64,000 nt of DNA from positions 1,364 to 65,363 of the forward strand of contig JAKAHY010000005.1 in the NCBI GenBank assembly GCA_021814695.1, written 5' to 3'. This document shows, one piece after another, positions 811 through 53,392 of this stretch (position 1 is its first letter; every line of letters starts with the position of its first letter). The DNA is from a bacterium. GTDB lineage: Bacteria; Patescibacteriota; Minisyncoccia; UBA6257; JAGOQP01. The position numbers and the translations under genes were made by a program. The notes below the pieces were generated by a model, which saw only the letters and a list, made by a program, of their open reading frames with translations, did no database searches and was not told the DNA's origin.

Positions 811-1482
811 TTAATTCTCGTCCAAATTATTGTTGGGTTTTTTTATTATTACAAGATAGTCTTCTCTTACTATTCTGTCGGAATCGGATTTTTCTCCATC
901 GATATGCGCCGTTTCTTCATCGGAAAATGACGATTCACGCTTATCTCCGATCTTAATTTCTTCAACGTCAACATTATATTTTTCTTTGACATATTGTAAA
1001 GCCTTCGTAACGGCCGCCGATAGAACCCTATAAGATTCAAAGTAATCTCCCCGAAAAACGGGCGAGAGCCTTACTTCTCCTCCGTCTTTGGCAACTCTTA
1101 CACATTCATCAAATGCATCCACTATTCTTTTTTCTACCGCTTCTTTATTATGGTCAAATTGGCTGGATAAAACATTGGGAATGGCACAGTTTGATATAAT
1201 CAAGTCAAATGTTTTATCCGGAAACGGCAATCGAGTCACATCGGCCACGGCTCCTTTTCCGGTTTCATAAGGAACAAAATGAAAATCAATGCTGTATATG
1301 TCATTAGCAAGACCGCGCTCTTTTGACGCCTTTGCGAATGAACCGATACCGCTCCCTACATCCAAAATCTTTTTATCAAAATCCTCGGGAGAAAGCCTTA
1401 AATTTGTGACATATTCTTTAAAAGTCTGCCCCTCGTGATCCTCTATGTGTTTTAATCTTTCGGGATTAATTGTCATAAACAA
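811..1482 (-). CDS. Class I SAM-dependent methyltransferase
   Basis: DVGSGIGSF glycine-rich SAM-binding motif I. Sits between dnaK and dnaJ. Confidence 0.6.
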   Translation of the reverse strand: MFMTINPERLKHIEDHEGQTFKEYVTNLRLSPEDFDKKILDVGSGIGSFAKASKERGLANDIYSIDFHFVPYETGKGAVADVTRLPFPDKTFDLIISNCAIPNVLSSQFDHNKEAVEKRIVDAFDECVRVAKDGGEVRLSPVFRGDYFESYRVLSAAVTKALQYVKEKYNVDVEEIKIGDKRESSFSDEETAHIDGEKSDSDRIVREDYLVIIKKPNNNLDEN

Positions 1483-4465: not shown

Positions 4466-4954
4466 TTATTTTACCACTTTGACTCTTGCTGCCCGAATCA
4501 ATTTTCCATTCATCATATAACCCCTCTCTACTTCTTCCGCGACCGTTCCTGACGGTTGATCGGATTCAACAACGGTTATTGCATCATGGATGCTGGGATC
4601 AAATTTTTGACCTACCGAAACAGAGATTCTCTCCAATCCATAACGCTTCAGCACATCTTCCAACTGGGTTCTAATAAGATAAATACCCTTCTCTGTTTTA
4701 TCATCCGCACCCAAAGACTGGATAGCCAGATCGAAACTGTCCAATACGCTGATTAATTCCCTGATAATCGTCTCGTTGGCATATTTTAAAACGGTTTCAA
4801 AGCGCTTAGTTTCGTCTTTTTTATAATTAATGAAATCAGCCTTCGCCCGTTTCCAACCATCAAGATAATCATCATTCTCCTTTTTGAGTCTTTCGATCTC
4901 CGACGGCTGAGCGTCCGAACTTGGATTTTGTTGGTTTTCCTGTTTTTCTTCCAT
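4466..4954 (-). CDS. grpE: Nucleotide exchange factor GrpE
   Basis: 162 aa; coiled-coil N-terminus plus GrpE C-terminal domain (ISVLDSFDLA, RAARVKVVK). Lies upstream of dnaK. Confidence 0.85.
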   Translation of the reverse strand: MEEKQENQQNPSSDAQPSEIERLKKENDDYLDGWKRAKADFINYKKDETKRFETVLKYANETIIRELISVLDSFDLAIQSLGADDKTEKGIYLIRTQLEDVLKRYGLERISVSVGQKFDPSIHDAITVVESDQPSGTVAEEVERGYMMNGKLIRAARVKVVK

Positions 4955-5093
4955 ATAAAAATATTCCCCTTGCTTGAATGAATTTCGCTACTATTTTAGT
5001 ACCCTTTGGATAATTGTCAATACTGGATGCTGACAAAATCAGGCTAAAAACGTATAATAAAGGCACTGTCGCAATTATTAATATTCAAGCCAA

Positions 5094-6005
5094 ATGATAA
5101 TCAAAAAAGGCAAGGTCAACTGGATAAATCTGGTTAATCCGAGTGATAAAGAATTAGCAGCTTTAAAAAAGGAATTCGGAATACATCCAATTATTATAGA
5201 GGAGTTAGCCGAACCGTCGGCCCGCTCCAAAGTCGAGATATACGGAAATTATATGTTTGTCGTTCTCCACTTGCCCGTATACGAAACTCAAGGACGCGTT
5301 TCCCGCAGGGGCGAAATGGATTTTTTGATTACCAAAAATGCCGTGATTTCGGTCAGTTACGAAAAACTGGAGCCGATCGAAATGTTGGAAGAAAAAATAG
5401 AGGATAATCCGAATTATAAAGACAGGCTCCTCGGCGGAGACACTGCTCGTCTTCTTTATTATCTTATAGAATCCTGCCTCCTTTATTCGATGAGACAATT
5501 GCACCACGTTGACGAAAAGATCGATGATATACGAAGTACGCTGTTTGAGGATCAGGAAAAAACTCTTCTTGAAAAAATATCTTACGTAAAAAGGGATTTG
5601 CTGAGTTATTATCTCATAACCAAATCGCAATCAAGCATTTTTAACTCTTTGAGCAAAATAGGGCCGGACTTTTTTGGAGACCATACCAAAGTTTATTTCA
5701 GCGATCTGGAAGGAGATTTCTTAAAAGTGCTTCAGTCGTGCGAAAGCTACAAAGATACCATCGAGTCATTTGAAAAAACCAACACCCAGATGTTAACCAT
5801 CAGAATGACTAAAGTAATGCAGAGATTTTCGGTCCTGGCATTTCTGACTTTTCCGATAATGGTATTTCTGGCTTTATTTACAATAGACACAAACTCTAGG
5901 CCAATAGTCGGACACTCTCCTTACGATTTCTGGATTTTATCCGGAATCGTCGTTGGAGCAATACTTATAATGGCGACAATCTTCAGAAAAAAAGAGTGGC
6001 TGTAA
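5094..6005 (+). CDS. CorA-family divalent cation transporter-like protein
   Basis: 303 aa; soluble N-domain followed by two C-terminal TM helices and a terminal RKKEWL, as in CorA. The usual GMN loop motif is replaced by TIDTN. Confidence 0.55.
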   Translation: MIIKKGKVNWINLVNPSDKELAALKKEFGIHPIIIEELAEPSARSKVEIYGNYMFVVLHLPVYETQGRVSRRGEMDFLITKNAVISVSYEKLEPIEMLEEKIEDNPNYKDRLLGGDTARLLYYLIESCLLYSMRQLHHVDEKIDDIRSTLFEDQEKTLLEKISYVKRDLLSYYLITKSQSSIFNSLSKIGPDFFGDHTKVYFSDLEGDFLKVLQSCESYKDTIESFEKTNTQMLTIRMTKVMQRFSVLAFLTFPIMVFLALFTIDTNSRPIVGHSPYDFWILSGIVVGAILIMATIFRKKEWL

Positions 6006-13804: not shown

Positions 13805-14051
13805 TTTCCCCTCCTTTTTGGGTTGTTAAGGTTCAAAAACTGCTCCGGTCATCGGAGCAGTTTTTGGTTTCAAATGTCAAAAAGTATTGTTTATATATTT
13901 AAAATCAAAGATTGCTCCAATGAAAGCCGGCCTCCGTTAAGGGATGCCGGGCAAATCATATTAATTTGGAACAACCCGTGTTTATACATAATTTTATTGC
14001 TTGTATTGTACATAACGATAAACAAATCAATTTGTTTCATTTTTTGTGGCC

Positions 14052-14071
14052 CCTGCCTACCGGCAGGCAGG
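14052..14071. repeat. 20-nt GC-rich palindrome cctgcctaccggcaggcagg (copy 1)
   Basis: An identical 20-mer occurs at 28160-28179; both copies sit beside tRNA-derived fragments. Confidence 0.7.
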
Positions 14072-14088
14072 CAACACGGGGGTTCGCC

Positions 14089-14102
14089 GTTCGAATCCCG
14101 AG
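14089..14102 (+). repeat. Inverted partial copy of the tRNA-Glu T-arm
   Basis: gttcgaatcccgag on the plus strand matches the T-arm of the minus-strand tRNA-Glu, about 50 nt downstream of the tRNA 3' end. Confidence 0.55.
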
Positions 14103-14111
14103 GGCAAAAAC

Positions 14112-14140
14112 AAAACATCCCGCTTACGCGGGTATGTTTT
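14112..14140 (-). terminator. Terminator after tRNA-Glu
   Basis: Hairpin cccgcttacgcggg followed by a T-run on the minus strand. Confidence 0.5.
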
Positions 14141-14148
14141 TGTTTTTG

Positions 14149-14223
14149 TGACCCCATCGGGATTCGAACCCGAGTTTTCGCGATGAGAACGCGACGTCCT
14201 GGACCGGACTAGACGATAGGGCC
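14149..14223 (-). tRNA. tRNA-Glu (anticodon CTC)
   Basis: Reverse complement folds as a cloverleaf: acceptor GGCCCTA/TGGGGTC, anticodon loop TTCTCAT, T-arm TCGGGTTCGAATCCCGA. Confidence 0.8.
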
Positions 14224-27425: not shown

Positions 27426-28085
27426 TCAGCCCGCTATCAGGGGAACAAAAGAAAATCCATGAAATGCCCTTTCTTCAAAATCATTCTTTTCTGTTTTATC
27501 CAGAACAACAATGCTCTCCCCCAGCGGAGCGACAATTCTTCCTCCAATAATAAGCTGGTCCTTCCAAGACTCGGGAATCTTATCCGCAGAAGCAGCTGCA
27601 ATAATCTTGTCGAAAGGAGCTTCGGTTTCATACCCCTTTGTGCCATCAAAATTTATAATCTTTGCCACCTCTCTTTCGACAAACCCGTATTTGGAAAGAT
27701 TGTTTATTGCCATCTGAGCAAGAGAATCGATACGCTCGAGAGAGATAACTCCATAGCGTCCATCTTTGTCTTCGGTAATTCCTCCGGGATGTTCAATCAT
27801 TTTGGCAATCAGTGCCGTCTGCCAACCGGAACCCGAGCCAATCTCCATAACCTTATCCCCCGCCCGCAAATCCAGGAGCTCGAGCATAAAGGCAACCGTC
27901 AGCGGTTGAGAAATAGTTTGTCCGTTTCCTATTGAAAGAGGCTCATTATGATATGCAAACTCCGCCAAAGAAGGCGGAACAAAGTCTTTGCGGTCAATCG
28001 CGTTAAAAGCATCTATAAGCAGCTGGGATTTAAGATATCCCAACTCGGTAAGTTCTTTTACAAGCTCGGAGTTTGAATAGGCCAT
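27426..28085 (-). CDS. pcm: Protein-L-isoaspartate O-methyltransferase
   Basis: SQPLTVAFMLELL and VMEIGSGSGWQTALIA motifs. Confidence 0.85.
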   Translation of the reverse strand: MAYSNSELVKELTELGYLKSQLLIDAFNAIDRKDFVPPSLAEFAYHNEPLSIGNGQTISQPLTVAFMLELLDLRAGDKVMEIGSGSGWQTALIAKMIEHPGGITEDKDGRYGVISLERIDSLAQMAINNLSKYGFVEREVAKIINFDGTKGYETEAPFDKIIAAASADKIPESWKDQLIIGGRIVAPLGESIVVLDKTEKNDFEERAFHGFSFVPLIAG

Positions 28086-28150
28086 TTACTATATAATAGC
28101 AGATGTTAAGCGTTGAAAAAATGCCTGTTGTGATGTATTTTGTAAACATT

Positions 28151-28230
28151 GGGGTCATACCTGCCTACCGGCAGGCAGGGTTCAAGAGCTCATTGGTAGA
28201 ATTGCTTCGTCTTCATTAACATTATTAATA
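28151..28230 (+). pseudogene. Degenerate duplicate of the tRNA-Trp 5' half, interrupted by the 20-nt palindrome
   Basis: ggggtcata[cctgcctaccggcaggcagg]gttcaa[gagctcat]tggtagaattgc parallels the start of the downstream tRNA-Trp (ggggtcatagttcaatggtagaattgc). Confidence 0.55.
28160..28179. repeat. 20-nt GC-rich palindrome cctgcctaccggcaggcagg (copy 2)
   Basis: Identical to 14052-14071. Confidence 0.7.
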
Positions 28231-28231
28231 T

Positions 28232-28305
28232 GGGGTCATAGTTCAATGGTAGAATTGCGGTCTCCAAAACCGCTGATCTAGGTTCGAATCCTAGTGACCC
28301 CGCCA
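28232..28305 (+). tRNA. tRNA-Trp (anticodon CCA), 3' CCA encoded
   Basis: GGGGTCATAGTTCAATGGTAGAATTGCGGTCTCCAAAACCGCTGATCTAGGTTCGAATCCTAGTGACCCCGCCA. Confidence 0.85.
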
Positions 28306-28480
28306 GTGTAAAAATAATACCCGCAGTCGTGTTATTTTTATACAAGTGAGTCCTTGGATTCGAATTGGAAAAGGGTCGGGAAAACAACGTTTTCCCGTGT
28401 TGGAAAACAGCGAAGCGTTAGAAACCGAGGGTGTCTAAGGAGAAGCGAAGCGACGACGTGAGATTCCTAGTGACCCCGCA
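28306..28480 (+). mobile_element. GC-rich tRNA-Trp trailer bounded by a direct repeat of the tRNA 3' end (integration scar or mini element)
   Basis: 28462-28480 (gattcctagtgaccccgca) repeats the tRNA-Trp 3' end (28287-28305). The segment holds an inverted T-loop-like ggattcgaa (28356-28364) and the hairpin gggaaaacaacgttttccc. Confidence 0.4.
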
Positions 28481-28483
28481 GAT

Positions 28484-28516
28484 AAAAATAGAGCTTAATT
28501 TTAAGCTCTTTTTAAT
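28484..28516. terminator. Bidirectional terminator hairpin
   Basis: agagcttaattttaagctct flanked by A/T runs, between the tRNA-Trp locus and the convergent 28512-28895 gene. Confidence 0.5.
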
Positions 28517-28895
28517 TCGATCTCTTAAGTTCCGGAGCGAAATAAAGCATCGTCTTCTTCTTATGGCAGATAGGACAGATATATTCGACCTCATATTTAA
28601 AAACGTGCTTATCGTACCAACCTTCGCGAGCCTTGACCCATTTCGTCTCCTCTCCGCTTACCAGCTGCGGCCCAATAACGGCAATCACTTTACCCTGCAT
28701 ACGGTAAGTTTTTCCAAAATTGCATTGCCTTTTTTCGAAAGCCCTGACATCATCCCCGATGTTGAATTTCTGAACTTCGCAACCTTTGGATTCGCATCTT
28801 AATGCGGCAGATTCCGTTCTGTGCTTTTTACCACAAATCTCACACAAAAAACGGACAATGGTCCTGGAAGGGACTGTTCTCTCCACTCTTTTCAC
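28512..28895 (-). CDS. Zinc-ribbon protein (hypothetical)
   Basis: 127 aa; CEICGKK...C.SKGC and CPICHKK motifs. Confidence 0.4.
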   Translation of the reverse strand: MKRVERTVPSRTIVRFLCEICGKKHRTESAALRCESKGCEVQKFNIGDDVRAFEKRQCNFGKTYRMQGKVIAVIGPQLVSGEETKWVKAREGWYDKHVFKYEVEYICPICHKKKTMLYFAPELKRSN

Positions 28896-51776: not shown

Positions 51777-51905
51777 TAAAATCTATAAAAAGCCACTAAA
51801 AATGGGATCAATTTAACCCCTTTTGTTGATCTAAGATTAGCATATTTTGAGCTAAAAAACAAGCCGGAATTGTGTTAAAACAGGGTAAAAATAGACACGG
51901 AAATT

Positions 51906-51924
51906 TGGGTGGCCTACGGGATTT
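51906..51924 (+). repeat. 19-nt direct repeat of the tRNA-His 3' end (attR-like)
   Basis: gggtggcctacgggatttg is identical to 52050-52068 (T-loop through acceptor 3' end of the minus-strand tRNA-His), 122 nt away. Confidence 0.65.
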
Positions 51925-52049
51925 GCCTCTCGCTCTGCTGAGTCTCGAGACCTTCGCAGCCTCTTCGGCAGCTGCGGCCCGCGGTTCAAATTCTATGAAG
52001 ATTTCCCAGAAAATAATAAGTTCTCCGAAGGGAGAACTTATTATTTCTT
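51925..52049 (-). mobile_element. GC-rich tRNA-His trailer between the tRNA and its 3'-end repeat (scar or mini integrative element)
   Basis: Contains an inverted T-arm-like cgcggttcaaattc (51979-51992) and a strong hairpin taagttctccgaagggagaactta (52016-52039, followed by a T-run on the minus strand) that likely terminates the tRNA-His transcript. Confidence 0.4.
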
Positions 52050-52122
52050 GGGTGGCCTACGGGATTTGAACCCGTGATAACAGTGCCACAAACTGTTGTG
52101 TTACCACTACACTAAGGCCACC
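52050..52122 (-). tRNA. tRNA-His (anticodon GTG); G-1 not encoded
   Basis: rc GGTGGCCTTAGTGTAGTGGTAACACAACAGTTTGTGGCACTGTTATCACGGGTTCAAATCCCGTAGGCCACCC; anticodon stem ACAGT/ACTGT. Confidence 0.7.
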
Positions 52123-52368: not shown

Positions 52369-52743
52369 TTATAAATCAAGTTTTCTACCCTTATAATTTA
52401 AAGCTTCTTTAATAAATTTTTTTTCGTCCCTACTGCTATGCTCTATCAAATGACAGTTAGCGCATAATAAAATACATTTCTTAATTTCGTTTTTTATAGA
52501 ATTCCAACTTTTATTTCCAACATTTCCAAGATTAAATTCTTTATTTTTTGGGTTTGTGTGGTGAAATTGGAAAGCTGATTGATTACCAGACCAACCACAT
52601 TTTTTACATTTTCCTCCAAGATATTTTATTGCAGCTAATTTTGTTCTATATCTCCTAATTTTTGTATTACAAGAACCACATCTGCTTCTGCACTTATTTT
52701 GATAATCTTTAAAATTATTTTTACAAAGCTTACATATTCGCAT
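52369..52743 (-). CDS. HNH endonuclease with N-terminal zinc fingers (homing-endonuclease-like)
   Basis: FQFHHTNP...N...N...KKCILLCANCHLIEH is a canonical HNH motif; CKLC...CGSC...CKKC zinc clusters; the region is markedly AT-rich. Confidence 0.7.
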   Translation of the reverse strand: MRICKLCKNNFKDYQNKCRSRCGSCNTKIRRYRTKLAAIKYLGGKCKKCGWSGNQSAFQFHHTNPKNKEFNLGNVGNKSWNSIKNEIKKCILLCANCHLIEHSSRDEKKFIKEALNYKGRKLDL

Positions 52744-52833: not shown

Positions 52834-53200
52834 GCCGCGGTAGCTCAGTGGTAGAGCGCATCCCTAAACTCTTTGGGGCTTTTCCGAGTAATCGGGATTG
52901 AAAAATCGGGTGAAATCGGTGGAAATCTCTAAATAAATTTTATTTTTAGACAATACCGAGCCAATCCTTCGCTAAAGCTTCGGATTGCAAGCAAGCTGTA
53001 TCTAAATTTTGCATAGAATAGAAAGTTTGCCTGCCGTAGCCTTCAGCGTAGGCAGGTGTAGAGACTATCCTTTATGGAGTACTCCGGCGGTTCCGCCAGA
53101 GGAAGCGCCCGATCCCCGCCTTTTGGTGGGGAATGATATAGTCCAAAACTCTTAGTCATGGAAGAGGATGGCGTCGGGGGTTCAATTCCCTCCCGCGGCA
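52834..53200 (+). tRNA. tRNA-Phe (anticodon GAA) interrupted by a group I intron between positions 33 and 34
   Basis: 5' exon GCCGCGGTAGCTCAGTGGTAGAGCGCATCCCT (52834-52865). 3' exon GAAGAGGATGGCGTCGGGGGTTCAATTCCCTCCCGCGGCA (53161-53200). Spliced loop CTGAAGA; acceptor GCCGCGG/CCGCGGC. Confidence 0.7.
52866..53160 (+). ncRNA. Group I self-splicing intron (295 nt) in the tRNA-Phe anticodon loop
   Basis: 5' exon ends in U paired to the intron GGGG (P1 CCCU/GGGG with a U-G pair); the intron ends in G (omega-G, 53160). R-like element AGAGACTA (about 53059-53067) and S-like GATATAGTCC (53135-53144) can form P7. Candidate cctgcc/ggcagg helix at 53032-53058. Confidence 0.65.
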
Positions 53201-53206
53201 CAATAA

Positions 53207-53240
53207 AAAACATTCACATTTTAAGTGGATGTTTTTATTT
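53207..53240 (+). terminator. Terminator after tRNA-Phe
   Basis: Hairpin acattcacattttaagtggatgt followed by ttttattt. Confidence 0.5.
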
Positions 53241-53392
53241 GCTGCGGGGAGCGAGCAAACTGATTTGCTTGCGTTAGGGAATTGAACGCCGGAGCATGTT
53301 TCGGCCAGCAGGCAGAAACGCGAGGCGGCGGCTAGACCAATTCGAGCGACGGCGAGAATTGAGTCGGAGCCAATATTATCCCGCGGCACAAT
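53241..53392 (+). mobile_element. GC-rich tRNA-Phe trailer ending in a direct repeat of the tRNA 3' end (scar or mini element)
   Basis: 53379-53392 (tcccgcggcacaat) repeats 53191-53204; inverted T-arm copy gggaattgaacgcc at 53277-53290; composition far more GC-rich than the flanks. Confidence 0.4.

Follow-up and report, generated by a model that had tools for sequence, protein, structure and literature searches.

A conserved folded element behind tRNA genes, and other small insertions around a tRNA-Trp gene, in a CPR bacterium

A working tRNA-Trp gene with pieces of tRNA sequence on both of its sides raises a simple question: what was inserted there? The gene lies in the window, by which we mean the whole stretch of DNA analysed, 64,000 nucleotides of contig JAKAHY010000005.1 in GenBank assembly GCA_021814695.1, from a Paceibacteria-type bacterium of the candidate phyla radiation (CPR). 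We find that three separate kinds of small insertion surround this one gene. The sequence downstream is a copy, intact at 28343-28483, of a folded non-coding element, conserved and present in many copies, that we call family A and that is apparently undescribed. The half-tRNA upstream is, as comparison with relatives shows, what is left of the 5' part of an older tRNA-Trp gene, split in its anticodon-loop region by a cassette with a complete replacement tRNA, and the 20-nt palindrome in that half is an independent, dispersed micro-insertion that is not specific to tRNA genes. Family A may in addition be a small non-autonomous mobile element that targets the T-loop of tRNA genes, a proposal for which the scales in our judgement stand about level. 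Loci outside the window carry L numbers.

The tRNA-Trp locus and family A

The locus consists of the following parts, in order.

28151-28159, + strand: start of the relic 5' half, a copy of tRNA-Trp nucleotides 1-9 (GGGGTCATA), recognised as a direct repeat
28160-28179, strand not applicable: 20-nt palindromic micro-insertion CCTGCCTACCGGCAGGCAGG, exactly between relic tRNA positions 9 and 10
28180-28205, + strand: remainder of the relic, a copy of the D-arm that includes the 8-nt insert GAGCTCAT and closes with GAATTGC
28206-28231, + strand: spacer from the relic to the live tRNA-Trp gene, read from sequences of relatives
28232-28305, + strand: functional tRNA-Trp gene, anticodon CCA, CCA end encoded (ARAGORN; Rfam tRNA model, 70.7 bits)
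28306-28343, + strand: A/T-rich terminator-like hairpin with 15-nt arms, 87% complementary
28346-28364, + strand: inverted copy of the T-loop, the T-stem 3' strand and part of the acceptor 3' strand (GTGAGTCCTTGGATTCGAA), the 5' arm of family A
28365-28461, + strand: folded core of family A (covariance model R1)
28462-28481, + strand: degenerate T-loop end (GATT), then CC and the tRNA-specific tail TAGTGACCCCGCAG; the 19-nt direct repeat of the sequence-only reading that preceded this analysis
28486-28513, + strand: second terminator hairpin, an inverted repeat with a terminator-like site at 28490-28509, common to the outer-gene terminator of relatives

Between the gene and the terminal repeat of its 3' end lie 156 nt (28306-28461). 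The hairpin that opens this span is the centre of a larger imperfect palindrome, 28283-28364 (69% over 84 nt), made by the tRNA 3' end together with its inverted copy, and the T-loop piece of the latter (28353-28364) is 92% complementary to 28283-28294. The core that follows has its parts in the order junction TTGGAAAAGGGTCGG, H1 (28377-28397), GUGUUGGAAA, H2 (28418-28438), GGAG and GCGACGACGUGA, and it ends at the repeat GATTCCTAGTGACCCCGCA (28462-28480), which agrees with 28286-28304 at 17 of 19 positions (17 of 18 for 28462-28479 against 28286-28303). No open reading frame (ORF) is present in the 176-nt unit. The features that the sequence-only reading had listed, namely the pseudo-copy, palindrome, 8-nt insert, 156-nt span, repeat, inverted T-loop and hairpin, all lie where it had placed them. 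Neither the 20-mer nor the 19-mer repeat is due to chance, as shuffles expect 0.00 and 0.01 matches, respectively, and the 20-mer has a real second exact copy at 14052-14071. Nor is the locus an assembly artefact, since 28086-28511 is 100% identical in two independent assemblies from other samples, NCBI GCA_027423305.1 and ENA ERZ27237538. The window is chromosomal CPR DNA, with rpsB, a short tsf, trmD, rplJ, gyrB, dnaK and aminoacyl-tRNA synthetase genes, and the nearest named homologues of the methyltransferase flanking the locus come from Paceibacterota/Parcubacteria.

The core recurs far beyond this genome. Scanning one genome per species with the pattern GGGTCGG-N55-85-CGACGTGAGATTCC turned up 51 loci. 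About 43 lie in CPR genomes, several of which hold more than one copy, and the rest are chance-level matches in unrelated taxa. The CPR carriers belong to Saccharibacteria, Paceibacterota, Liptonbacteria, Colwellbacteria, Moraniibacteriota and other Parcubacteria. The covariance model R1, built from 44 copies, finds one copy in the window (28343-28483, 87.6 bits, E=4e-25) and 55 matches in 48 sources of CPR/Patescibacteria, including copies that lack the pattern, such as L003:6046-6182 directly 3' of a tRNA-Asn; model and simple pattern make the family directly searchable. Copies measure ~125-150 nt, none with an ORF, and they always lie on the tRNA strand, the core usually starting 56-78 nt past the tRNA end (range 15-256). 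Their common layout is an inverted copy of the T-loop and T-stem, a core with covarying hairpins, a degenerate T-loop GUGAGAUU, and then 'CC' with a tail that repeats the tRNA from C61 through the discriminator, often on into the trailer or terminator.

The fold of the core is conserved too. H1 is 98% paired over the 44 copies, with covariation at four of its seven pairs and AU alternating with GC 22:20 at one of them. Over the whole alignment 87.9% of the cells are paired, and the covariation score, which none of 500 shuffles reached, lies above all slid controls. The loops are of the GNRA type, and G.U (in DNA, G.T) pairs occur on the tRNA strand only. The compensatory changes support a conserved secondary structure, a signal that folded single-stranded DNA (ssDNA) would give equally. 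A search of Rfam 15 with 28050-28560 at E up to 10 gave only chance-level matches, eight other loci, at E up to 1, produced no convincing match there, and scanning the whole window at gathering scores named no family for the element either; a ylbH-leader match over the 5' end of the L026 copy (32.9 bits, gathering score 50) was judged spurious. Transfer-messenger RNA (tmRNA), two-piece tmRNA, a group I intron fragment, ribozymes of the hepatitis delta virus-like and hammerhead types, T-box, retron and bridge RNA were each considered and rejected for misfit of size, motifs or gene context, and none gave a model match. In the literature that we searched such elements are not described.

Relatives of the Trp locus, fetched through homologues of the neighbouring pcm gene (percentages are protein identities), show the site both with and without the element. 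In L001 (83%), L008 (77%) and L011/L012 (67%) a terminator or unrelated sequence comes directly after the tRNA-Trp gene, and both pseudo-half and repeat are missing. In L003/L004 (80%) the downstream element is present without an upstream half, and the direct repeat, of ~50 nt, takes in the terminator entirely. The element of L005/L006 (88%) is homologous, with compensatory changes in its hairpin (CGGAAACC/GGTTTCCG versus CGGGAAAAC/GTTTTCCCG) and a tail, CCTGGCGTCCCCGCA, that is the 3' end of an L001-type tRNA-Trp and not of the adjacent gene. In L007 (79%) a different tRNA-Trp is followed by the core that in the window follows tRNA-His. L001, L008 and L011 thus have an empty orthologous Trp site, which in the window, L003 and L005/L006 is filled, and from these states and the L007 core it follows that the cores are modules found at different tRNAs and that the Trp site is polymorphic. 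Elsewhere, near-identical cores stand behind two different tRNAs 1 kb apart in L024, copies lie in tandem in L047, and an identical variable hairpin is common to copies from Saccharibacteria and Parcubacteria.

These comparisons bear directly on what the sequence-only reading had proposed, namely that the flanks are attL/attR-type scars of tyrosine-recombinase integrations with a non-autonomous remnant between them. Its view of the flanking tRNA pieces as footprints of inserted DNA agrees with the empty tRNA-Trp sites of L001, L008 and L011/L012, and the locus is not a single precursor conserved in all relatives. The repeat does begin in the T-loop region and pass the tRNA end, like attL/attR of integrative elements that target tRNA genes, and partial tRNAs are known to flank such elements (tycheposons), successive events leaving arrays (bioRxiv 10.1101/2020.12.28.424599). 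Family A resembles these elements in lying 3' of an intact tRNA, in a repeat that starts inside the tRNA, in occupied and empty sites and in partial-tRNA arrays. It differs in its size of ~150-190 bp, in having no integrase or ORF, in a folded core in place of cargo, in its range of at least 14 isotypes and in the extra inverted copy of the target. A randomly decayed island remnant is contradicted by the interior, whose sequence and fold are conserved in 55 copies, behind at least 14 isotypes and in different CPR phyla; the 156 nt belong instead to a full-length family member. All copies are, moreover, short and free of ORFs, and no integrase recurs nearby. When the 180 ORFs near 43 copies were clustered all against all within 2.5 kb, the largest cluster had three members, and no recurrent protein (integrase, TnpB, IscB, Cas, IS110) stood beside these copies; among 40 scanned ORFs of the window none was an integrase, transposase, reverse transcriptase or TnpB. 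We therefore regard classical att scars around a decayed island as very improbable, and keep from that proposal the footprints of insertion at a tRNA gene.

Target matching and possible mobility

How is family A tied to the tRNA in front of it? About two-thirds of the copies that follow a tRNA (22 of 36 listed) have a tail identical to that tRNA for 14 nt or more, and the tRNAs belong to 14 isotypes: Trp, Met, Leu, Lys, Pro, Asp, Glu, Arg, Gly, Ile, Thr, Tyr, Ser and His. The exact repeat is 14-37 nt long, approximate repeats reach 49-57 nt, and both can pass the tRNA end; the duplication has a fixed start at C61 and a variable length of 14-57 nt. Of 34 copies, 26 have an inverted arm that is exactly the neighbour's 7-nt T-loop in reverse complement, where shuffling gives 6.6 on average and 17 at most, and the arm goes on for typically 2-8 nt (range 0-10) into the T-stem and acceptor strand. 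Beyond their constant part arm and tail pair over 2.16 bp, against 0.72 bp with shuffled tails. The ends of the element, GGAATCGAAC...GTGAGATTCC as read from the consensus, are inverted repeats at 8 of 10 positions, of which the left one copies the target T-loop. In the window the repeat departs from the tRNA by an A-to-T mismatch (GATTCC for GAATCC), and this is not decay, since the core closes at its 3' side with a degenerate T-loop, GUGAGAUUCC, and two divergent copies found without the pattern have a true T-loop there (GTTCGATTCC or GTTCGCTTCC); GAGATTCC is fixed by the search pattern itself.

A mobile element with these properties would enter tRNA genes at the boundary of T-loop and T-stem, and the tRNA would stay intact because the element brings or copies the 3' end, by the logic of attL/attR. 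The recombinase or nuclease would be supplied in trans and would recognise a folded single strand, be it ssDNA or RNA, in which the inverted arm would pair with the 3' segment of the tRNA and so rebuild a copy of the target beside the core. Possible parallels are the attP site of CTX-phi, used by XerCD, and the attC sites of integrons, which are folded single-stranded recombination sites, and other elements that exploit the recombinases of their host. They would share with family A a folding strand that carries no protein, an inverted arm that rebuilds a duplex copy of the target beside the crossover point, conservation of structure above sequence and strand-specific wobble pairs, and an arm that holds the exact T-loop and typically 2-8 nt more fits this feature of folded ssDNA sites. 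They differ in that the target of family A would be the tRNA T-arm and not dif or attI, and in that family A is 20-50x smaller than CTX-type phages. Insertion of DNA is also favoured by the extension of the repeat into the trailer and terminator, and by the hairpin that most copies have between tRNA and arm, which is strong and terminator-like where it was read (the tRNA-His, tRNA-Trp and intron-bearing tRNA of the window).

If family A is mobile, it would be the smallest known element that targets tRNA genes, retargeting many tRNA species without a recombinase of its own; the question would then be that of the enzyme and of the nucleic-acid form, RNA or ssDNA, with possible interest for programmable insertion. 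A junction GAGATTCC+TAGTGACCCC in L005-type genomes would mark such a mobile form, circular or transposed.

The other reading that takes the fold at face value is that family A is a functional small-RNA gene, mimicking the 3' quarter of its neighbour tRNA (T-stem closing a large structured T-loop, acceptor 3' strand and discriminator). Its excision would fall to the enzymes that process tRNAs (RNase P, RNase Z or exonucleases, with the CCA-adding enzyme). The RNA would act in tRNA metabolism, perhaps as a decoy or titrator of enzymes or toxins that recognise tRNA 3' ends or as the partner of a 5' tRNA fragment, and would spread by duplication. The covarying helices and GNRA-type loops, the G.U pairs confined to the tRNA strand, the constant position downstream of a tRNA in the same orientation and the terminator after the tail are all as expected of it. 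So are a T-loop-like pentamer that keeps U54 and A58, the true T-loops of the two divergent copies and an arm-tail helix longer than chance. In order and content the 3' part also recalls known tRNA-like RNAs (the tmRNA domain, YrlA, viral 3' structures), with a T-loop-like motif followed by T-stem 3' strand, acceptor 3' strand and discriminator. Those RNAs, tmRNA and YrlA among them, each mimic one fixed tRNA type, whereas in family A the mimic follows the upstream tRNA; family A further differs in that Rfam gave no match and that most copies have no acceptor 5' strand. Against it speaks the strong terminator-like hairpin that usually lies between tRNA and element; the consensus promoter scan found no promoter for it, its one promoter-like site (28113-28141) lying 5' of the whole locus and being no more than chance predicts. 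The repeat often passes the end of the mature tRNA, which mimicry does not need, and the inverted arm copies the T-loop of the tRNA and not the complement of the element's own GAGAUU. Close relatives carry the element patchily, and tails sometimes mismatch the neighbour. We hold an RNA gene of this kind, together with its supposed processing and role, to be on the unlikely side while deserving serious attention; if it is right, the Patescibacteria, a poorly understood group to which a large part of bacterial diversity belongs, contain a large unannotated family of mimics of tRNA 3' ends. The two readings are not exclusive of one another.

Several observations weigh against mobility. It is read from distribution only, since no recombinase, nuclease or excised form was identified, and no vector is known, as two versions of the family-A pattern gave 0 matches in the viral contigs of IMG/VR. 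Near-identical cores behind different isotypes need arm and tail to be re-made for each target, which classical site-specific integration does not do. Where neighbour tRNA and tail differ, the arm favours neither (2 against 3 cases, with 12 ties). The invariance of GGGTCGG and CGACGTGAGATTCC is partly a requirement of the search pattern. Finally, GNRA loops, G.U strand bias, fixed orientation and a terminator after the tail would fit an expressed RNA gene equally well.

An element that repeats its neighbour in this way could also encode a guide RNA, akin to the omega-RNAs of TnpB or those of Cas12-like nucleases, whose tail would direct a nuclease or transposase encoded elsewhere to the tRNA gene. 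Like the omega-RNAs of TnpB and IscB, it has a scaffold, here of ~100 nt, followed by a short 3' segment identical to the flanking DNA, here 12-20 nt of the adjacent tRNA gene, and the tail varies with the target while the scaffold stays unchanged. It lacks, however, a nuclease gene and the ends of an insertion sequence, there being no TnpB, IscB, Cas or IS110 beside the 43 copies or among the 40 window ORFs, and no Rfam match. A copy 150 nt upstream would be targeted by the guide itself, and an inverted arm complementary to the guide, in addition to a direct repeat, is not a feature of known guides. This makes a guide RNA, in our view, improbable.

The upstream half-tRNA and the palindrome

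The sequence-only reading had treated the two flanks as the same kind of att scar. On the upstream side, comparison with L009 and L033 points instead to a nested, replaced tRNA gene. The copy (T)GGGGTCATA at 28150/28151-28159 is identical at 10 of 10 positions to 28231-28240, and GGGGTCATA begins 81 nt 5' of the intact gene. After the palindrome, whose arms of 10+10 nt are 90% complementary, come GTTCAA, the insert GAGCTCAT and TGGTAGAATTGC; 28187-28205 is 89% identical to 28240-28258, and the D-arm copy stops at the first anticodon-stem bases. Neither ARAGORN nor the Rfam scan calls this half as a tRNA. Its first nine nucleotides are homologous to the 5' exon of the outer gene in L009 and to the decayed one in L005, and the end of the spacer, TTAATAT, is also found in the left flank of the inner tRNA of L009.

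In L009 (around 2680-2960, - strand) and its near-duplicate L010, a tRNA-Trp of the GGGGTCA type is interrupted three times. Two hairpin inserts lie in the D-loop, and the third, in the anticodon loop, consists of CCGCCTGCC..., a complete different tRNA-Trp and ...GGGCAGGC; when the three inserts are deleted in silico from L009, ARAGORN calls a tRNA-Trp(CCA). The unrelated L033 of Liptonbacteria has a tRNA-Lys nested in a tRNA-Lys (5063-5290, +), whose joined halves restore tRNA-Lys(TTT), with a further pseudo-half upstream that carries the palindrome after nt 9, and a family-A copy downstream. In both, the inner tRNA has the same specificity as the outer one, stands in its anticodon loop and has complementary flanks. 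L005 is an intermediate: its inner tRNA and family-A element stand between outer halves that have decayed, and the palindrome sits in the T-loop of the outer gene. The tail and second terminator of the window align with, and are orthologous to, the 3' end and terminator of the outer gene of L009 and L005, and the locus in the window is thus a further-decayed nested one. The element tail and the outer 3' end coincide in it, which would most simply be the outcome of a deletion between the two repeats.

Also in L033, at 4850-5062 (+), the leader and first ~20 nt of the tRNA-Lys are duplicated upstream, broken by the palindrome after nt 9 and followed by ~70 nt that are GC-rich and rich in hairpins, a counterpart on the 5' side of the 3' elements.

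Outer half and terminal repeat might, alternatively, be the exons of one split or multi-intron tRNA, from whose precursor RNA the inserts, the inner tRNA among them, would be removed. The disrupted tRNA genes of Archaea, be they split, multi-intron, permuted or disrupted by integrated elements, have breaks in the anticodon and D loops and foreign DNA between their halves. The loci described here are like them in the anticodon- and D-loop interruptions, the complementary insert flanks (L009, L033) and the separated halves, and L009 has well-preserved outer exons and yields a tRNA once its three inserts are removed. In the window the whole-locus fold pairs the outer 5' and 3' pieces (z = -6.4), a pairing that is trivial given their common origin. 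The outer copy of the window has, however, neither an anticodon arm nor a T-stem 5' strand, and removal of the inserts restores no tRNA there, as it does in L009 and L033 only; in L005 the outer halves decay progressively. These loci differ further from the archaeal ones in that the host is a bacterium with no known splicing machinery, the insert brings a second tRNA, complete and equal in specificity, and the outer gene decays in relatives. We know of no tRNA-splicing endonuclease in bacteria, and consider a split tRNA extremely improbable; replacement of an older tRNA-Trp by a nested one is the account that we prefer. An extra helix in the whole-locus fold (28204-28214/28443-28452) is probably coincidental, since its 3' strand is conserved core and its 5' strand is not conserved in L005.

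At 1100-1250 (+) of L009 two intact tRNA-Thr genes enclose an array of partial tRNA-Thr 3' ends with differing acceptor sequences, in one of which the palindrome immediately precedes the T-arm. Elements such as family A, nested tRNA genes and pseudo-halves will confuse the annotation of tRNA genes in CPR genomes.

The palindrome, CCTGCCTRCCGGYAGGCAGG, might be taken for part of an att site. It has been inserted precisely, without target duplication, and stands at the same tRNA position (after nt 9) in the tRNA-Lys pseudo-half of L033, as well as in other tRNA-derived fragments of several CPR genomes. It is also found in at least 120 metagenome contigs (loci L067-L146) and 48 viral contigs of IMG/VR (L187-L234), some of the latter with 3-6 copies, in flanks of GC 0.20-0.72, and some copies are nested in the centre of another (L110, L111, L115, L117). 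A tRNA lies within 150 nt at 2 of 83 metagenome sites, and at 0 of the 83 does its removal restore a tRNA gene. It is an independent, dispersed micro-element that belongs to no att site. A preference for the loops of existing hairpins was not borne out in general, the mean run of flank complementarity being 0.43 against 0.33 in controls, although single striking cases exist. Miniature inverted-repeat transposable elements (MITEs), repetitive extragenic palindromes (REP/REPIN) and the GC clusters of mitochondria are alike in being short, non-coding, multicopy, GC-rich in an AT-rich genome, precisely inserted and sometimes self-nested. From MITEs and REP/REPIN the palindrome differs by its mere 20 nt, the missing target-site duplication, the range of its contigs (GC 0.20-0.72) and its presence in viral contigs, and no RAYT or other transposase was identified for it, no search having been aimed at RAYT genes. 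It looks like an ultra-short mobile palindrome. In L056 (1889-1908) it splits the tail of a family-A copy behind tRNA-Ile (CCTAGTG[palindrome]GGCGCAC), and in the window its only two copies are those at 28160-28179 and 14052-14071.

Other elements and tRNA clusters in the window

Three further tRNA genes of the window have elements of comparable architecture behind them.

51905-51996, - strand: family B, behind tRNA-His (52050-52121), with an inverted T-loop copy (51984-51996), a 58-nt core (51926-51983) and a perfect 21-nt repeat of the tRNA 3' end (51905-51925)
53240-53392, + strand: family C, behind an intron-containing tRNA (52834-53202), with an inverted copy split by a hairpin (53240-53287), a core (53288-53378) and a 14-nt repeat (53379-53392)
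14046-14104 (locus 14046-14148), - strand: degraded family-A-like element, tentative, behind tRNA-Glu (14148-14223)

The first two came from a search for repeats of each tRNA end, in which His and the intron-bearing tRNA were the two further tRNAs with a perfect 3'-end repeat 130-170 nt downstream. The order shared by these loci is tRNA, A/T-rich hairpin, inverted copy of T-loop and acceptor, 60-100 nt of GC-rich sequence and direct repeat. The Trp and intron-tRNA loci have a clear second terminator hairpin, and none is evident after the His repeat. Family B has a terminator hairpin before its inverted copy, and its core is homologous, with compensatory changes, to that behind the tRNA-Trp of L007. 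It rests on these two copies, since the core gave 0 matches in JGI metagenome contigs; its pattern gave 0 in viral contigs. Family C shares the 3' motif GAGCGACGGCGAGAATT of its core with family A, and its module CTAGACCAATTC...GAATTGAGTC recurs in L041 and, with the palindrome in the loop, in L080. With filters off, R1 gives 3.6-4 bits for the His and intron-tRNA elements, and for this reason we treat families B and C as having the same architecture and not as proven homologues of family A.

It is possible that family A, and probably B and C with it, form a new class of mobile elements without proteins, in which a single-strand fold would hold a re-writable copy of the T-arm and acceptor end of the occupied tRNA gene, and targeting, of nearly any tRNA gene, would be programmed by mimicry of target sequence and structure, with no dedicated integrase; we offer this tentatively, and with more doubt than belief. 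If it is true, families A, B and C, the tRNA-in-tRNA cassettes and the palindrome make the tRNA genes of CPR bacteria an arena, so far unrecognised, for the turnover of selfish elements. Whether family A is mobile or an RNA gene, tRNA loci in these tiny genomes are hot spots of turnover.

The intron-bearing tRNA is called by neither ARAGORN nor the Rfam tRNA model. ARAGORN misses it because of a group I intron, at 52856-53165 in the anticodon loop (Rfam Intron_gpI, 48.3 bits, gathering score 50, E=8.7e-11). Close by, inside the tRNA cluster, lies an ORF of the HNH type (52369-52743, -; Pfam E=1.4e-4). A GIY-YIG ORF is found in the tRNA cluster of L009 (1675-1920), and L005 (888-1625) and L024 (1800-2468) have related ORFs with weak helix-turn-helix matches and a LAGLIDADG-like motif read by eye. 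Such ORFs of the homing-endonuclease type are frequent in these tRNA clusters and are candidates for making the breaks. One could go further and do without any dedicated element, all partial copies being products of repeated double-strand-break repair after homing endonucleases, with template switching at terminator and T-arm. The HNH and GIY-YIG ORFs, the weak matches in L005 and L024, and the tRNA-fragment arrays and nested genes in the clusters are consistent with that account, which cannot, however, account for a conserved, covarying 100-nt core across phyla. As a full explanation it seems to us very improbable, though it may explain how the element or the relics are moved.

At the tRNA-Glu locus the assignment to family A is tentative, since R1 gives only a weak match (14042-14111, 10 bits, E=0.28). 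An inverted copy of T-loop and T-stem (14089-14104), the remnant GGCGAACCCCCGTGTTG (14072-14088), the palindrome (14052-14071), which lies in the truncated core, and a short tail, GGCCAC, can be told apart there, and the tRNA 3' end, hairpin and inverted copy together form an 88-nt palindrome (14089-14169, 79.5%).

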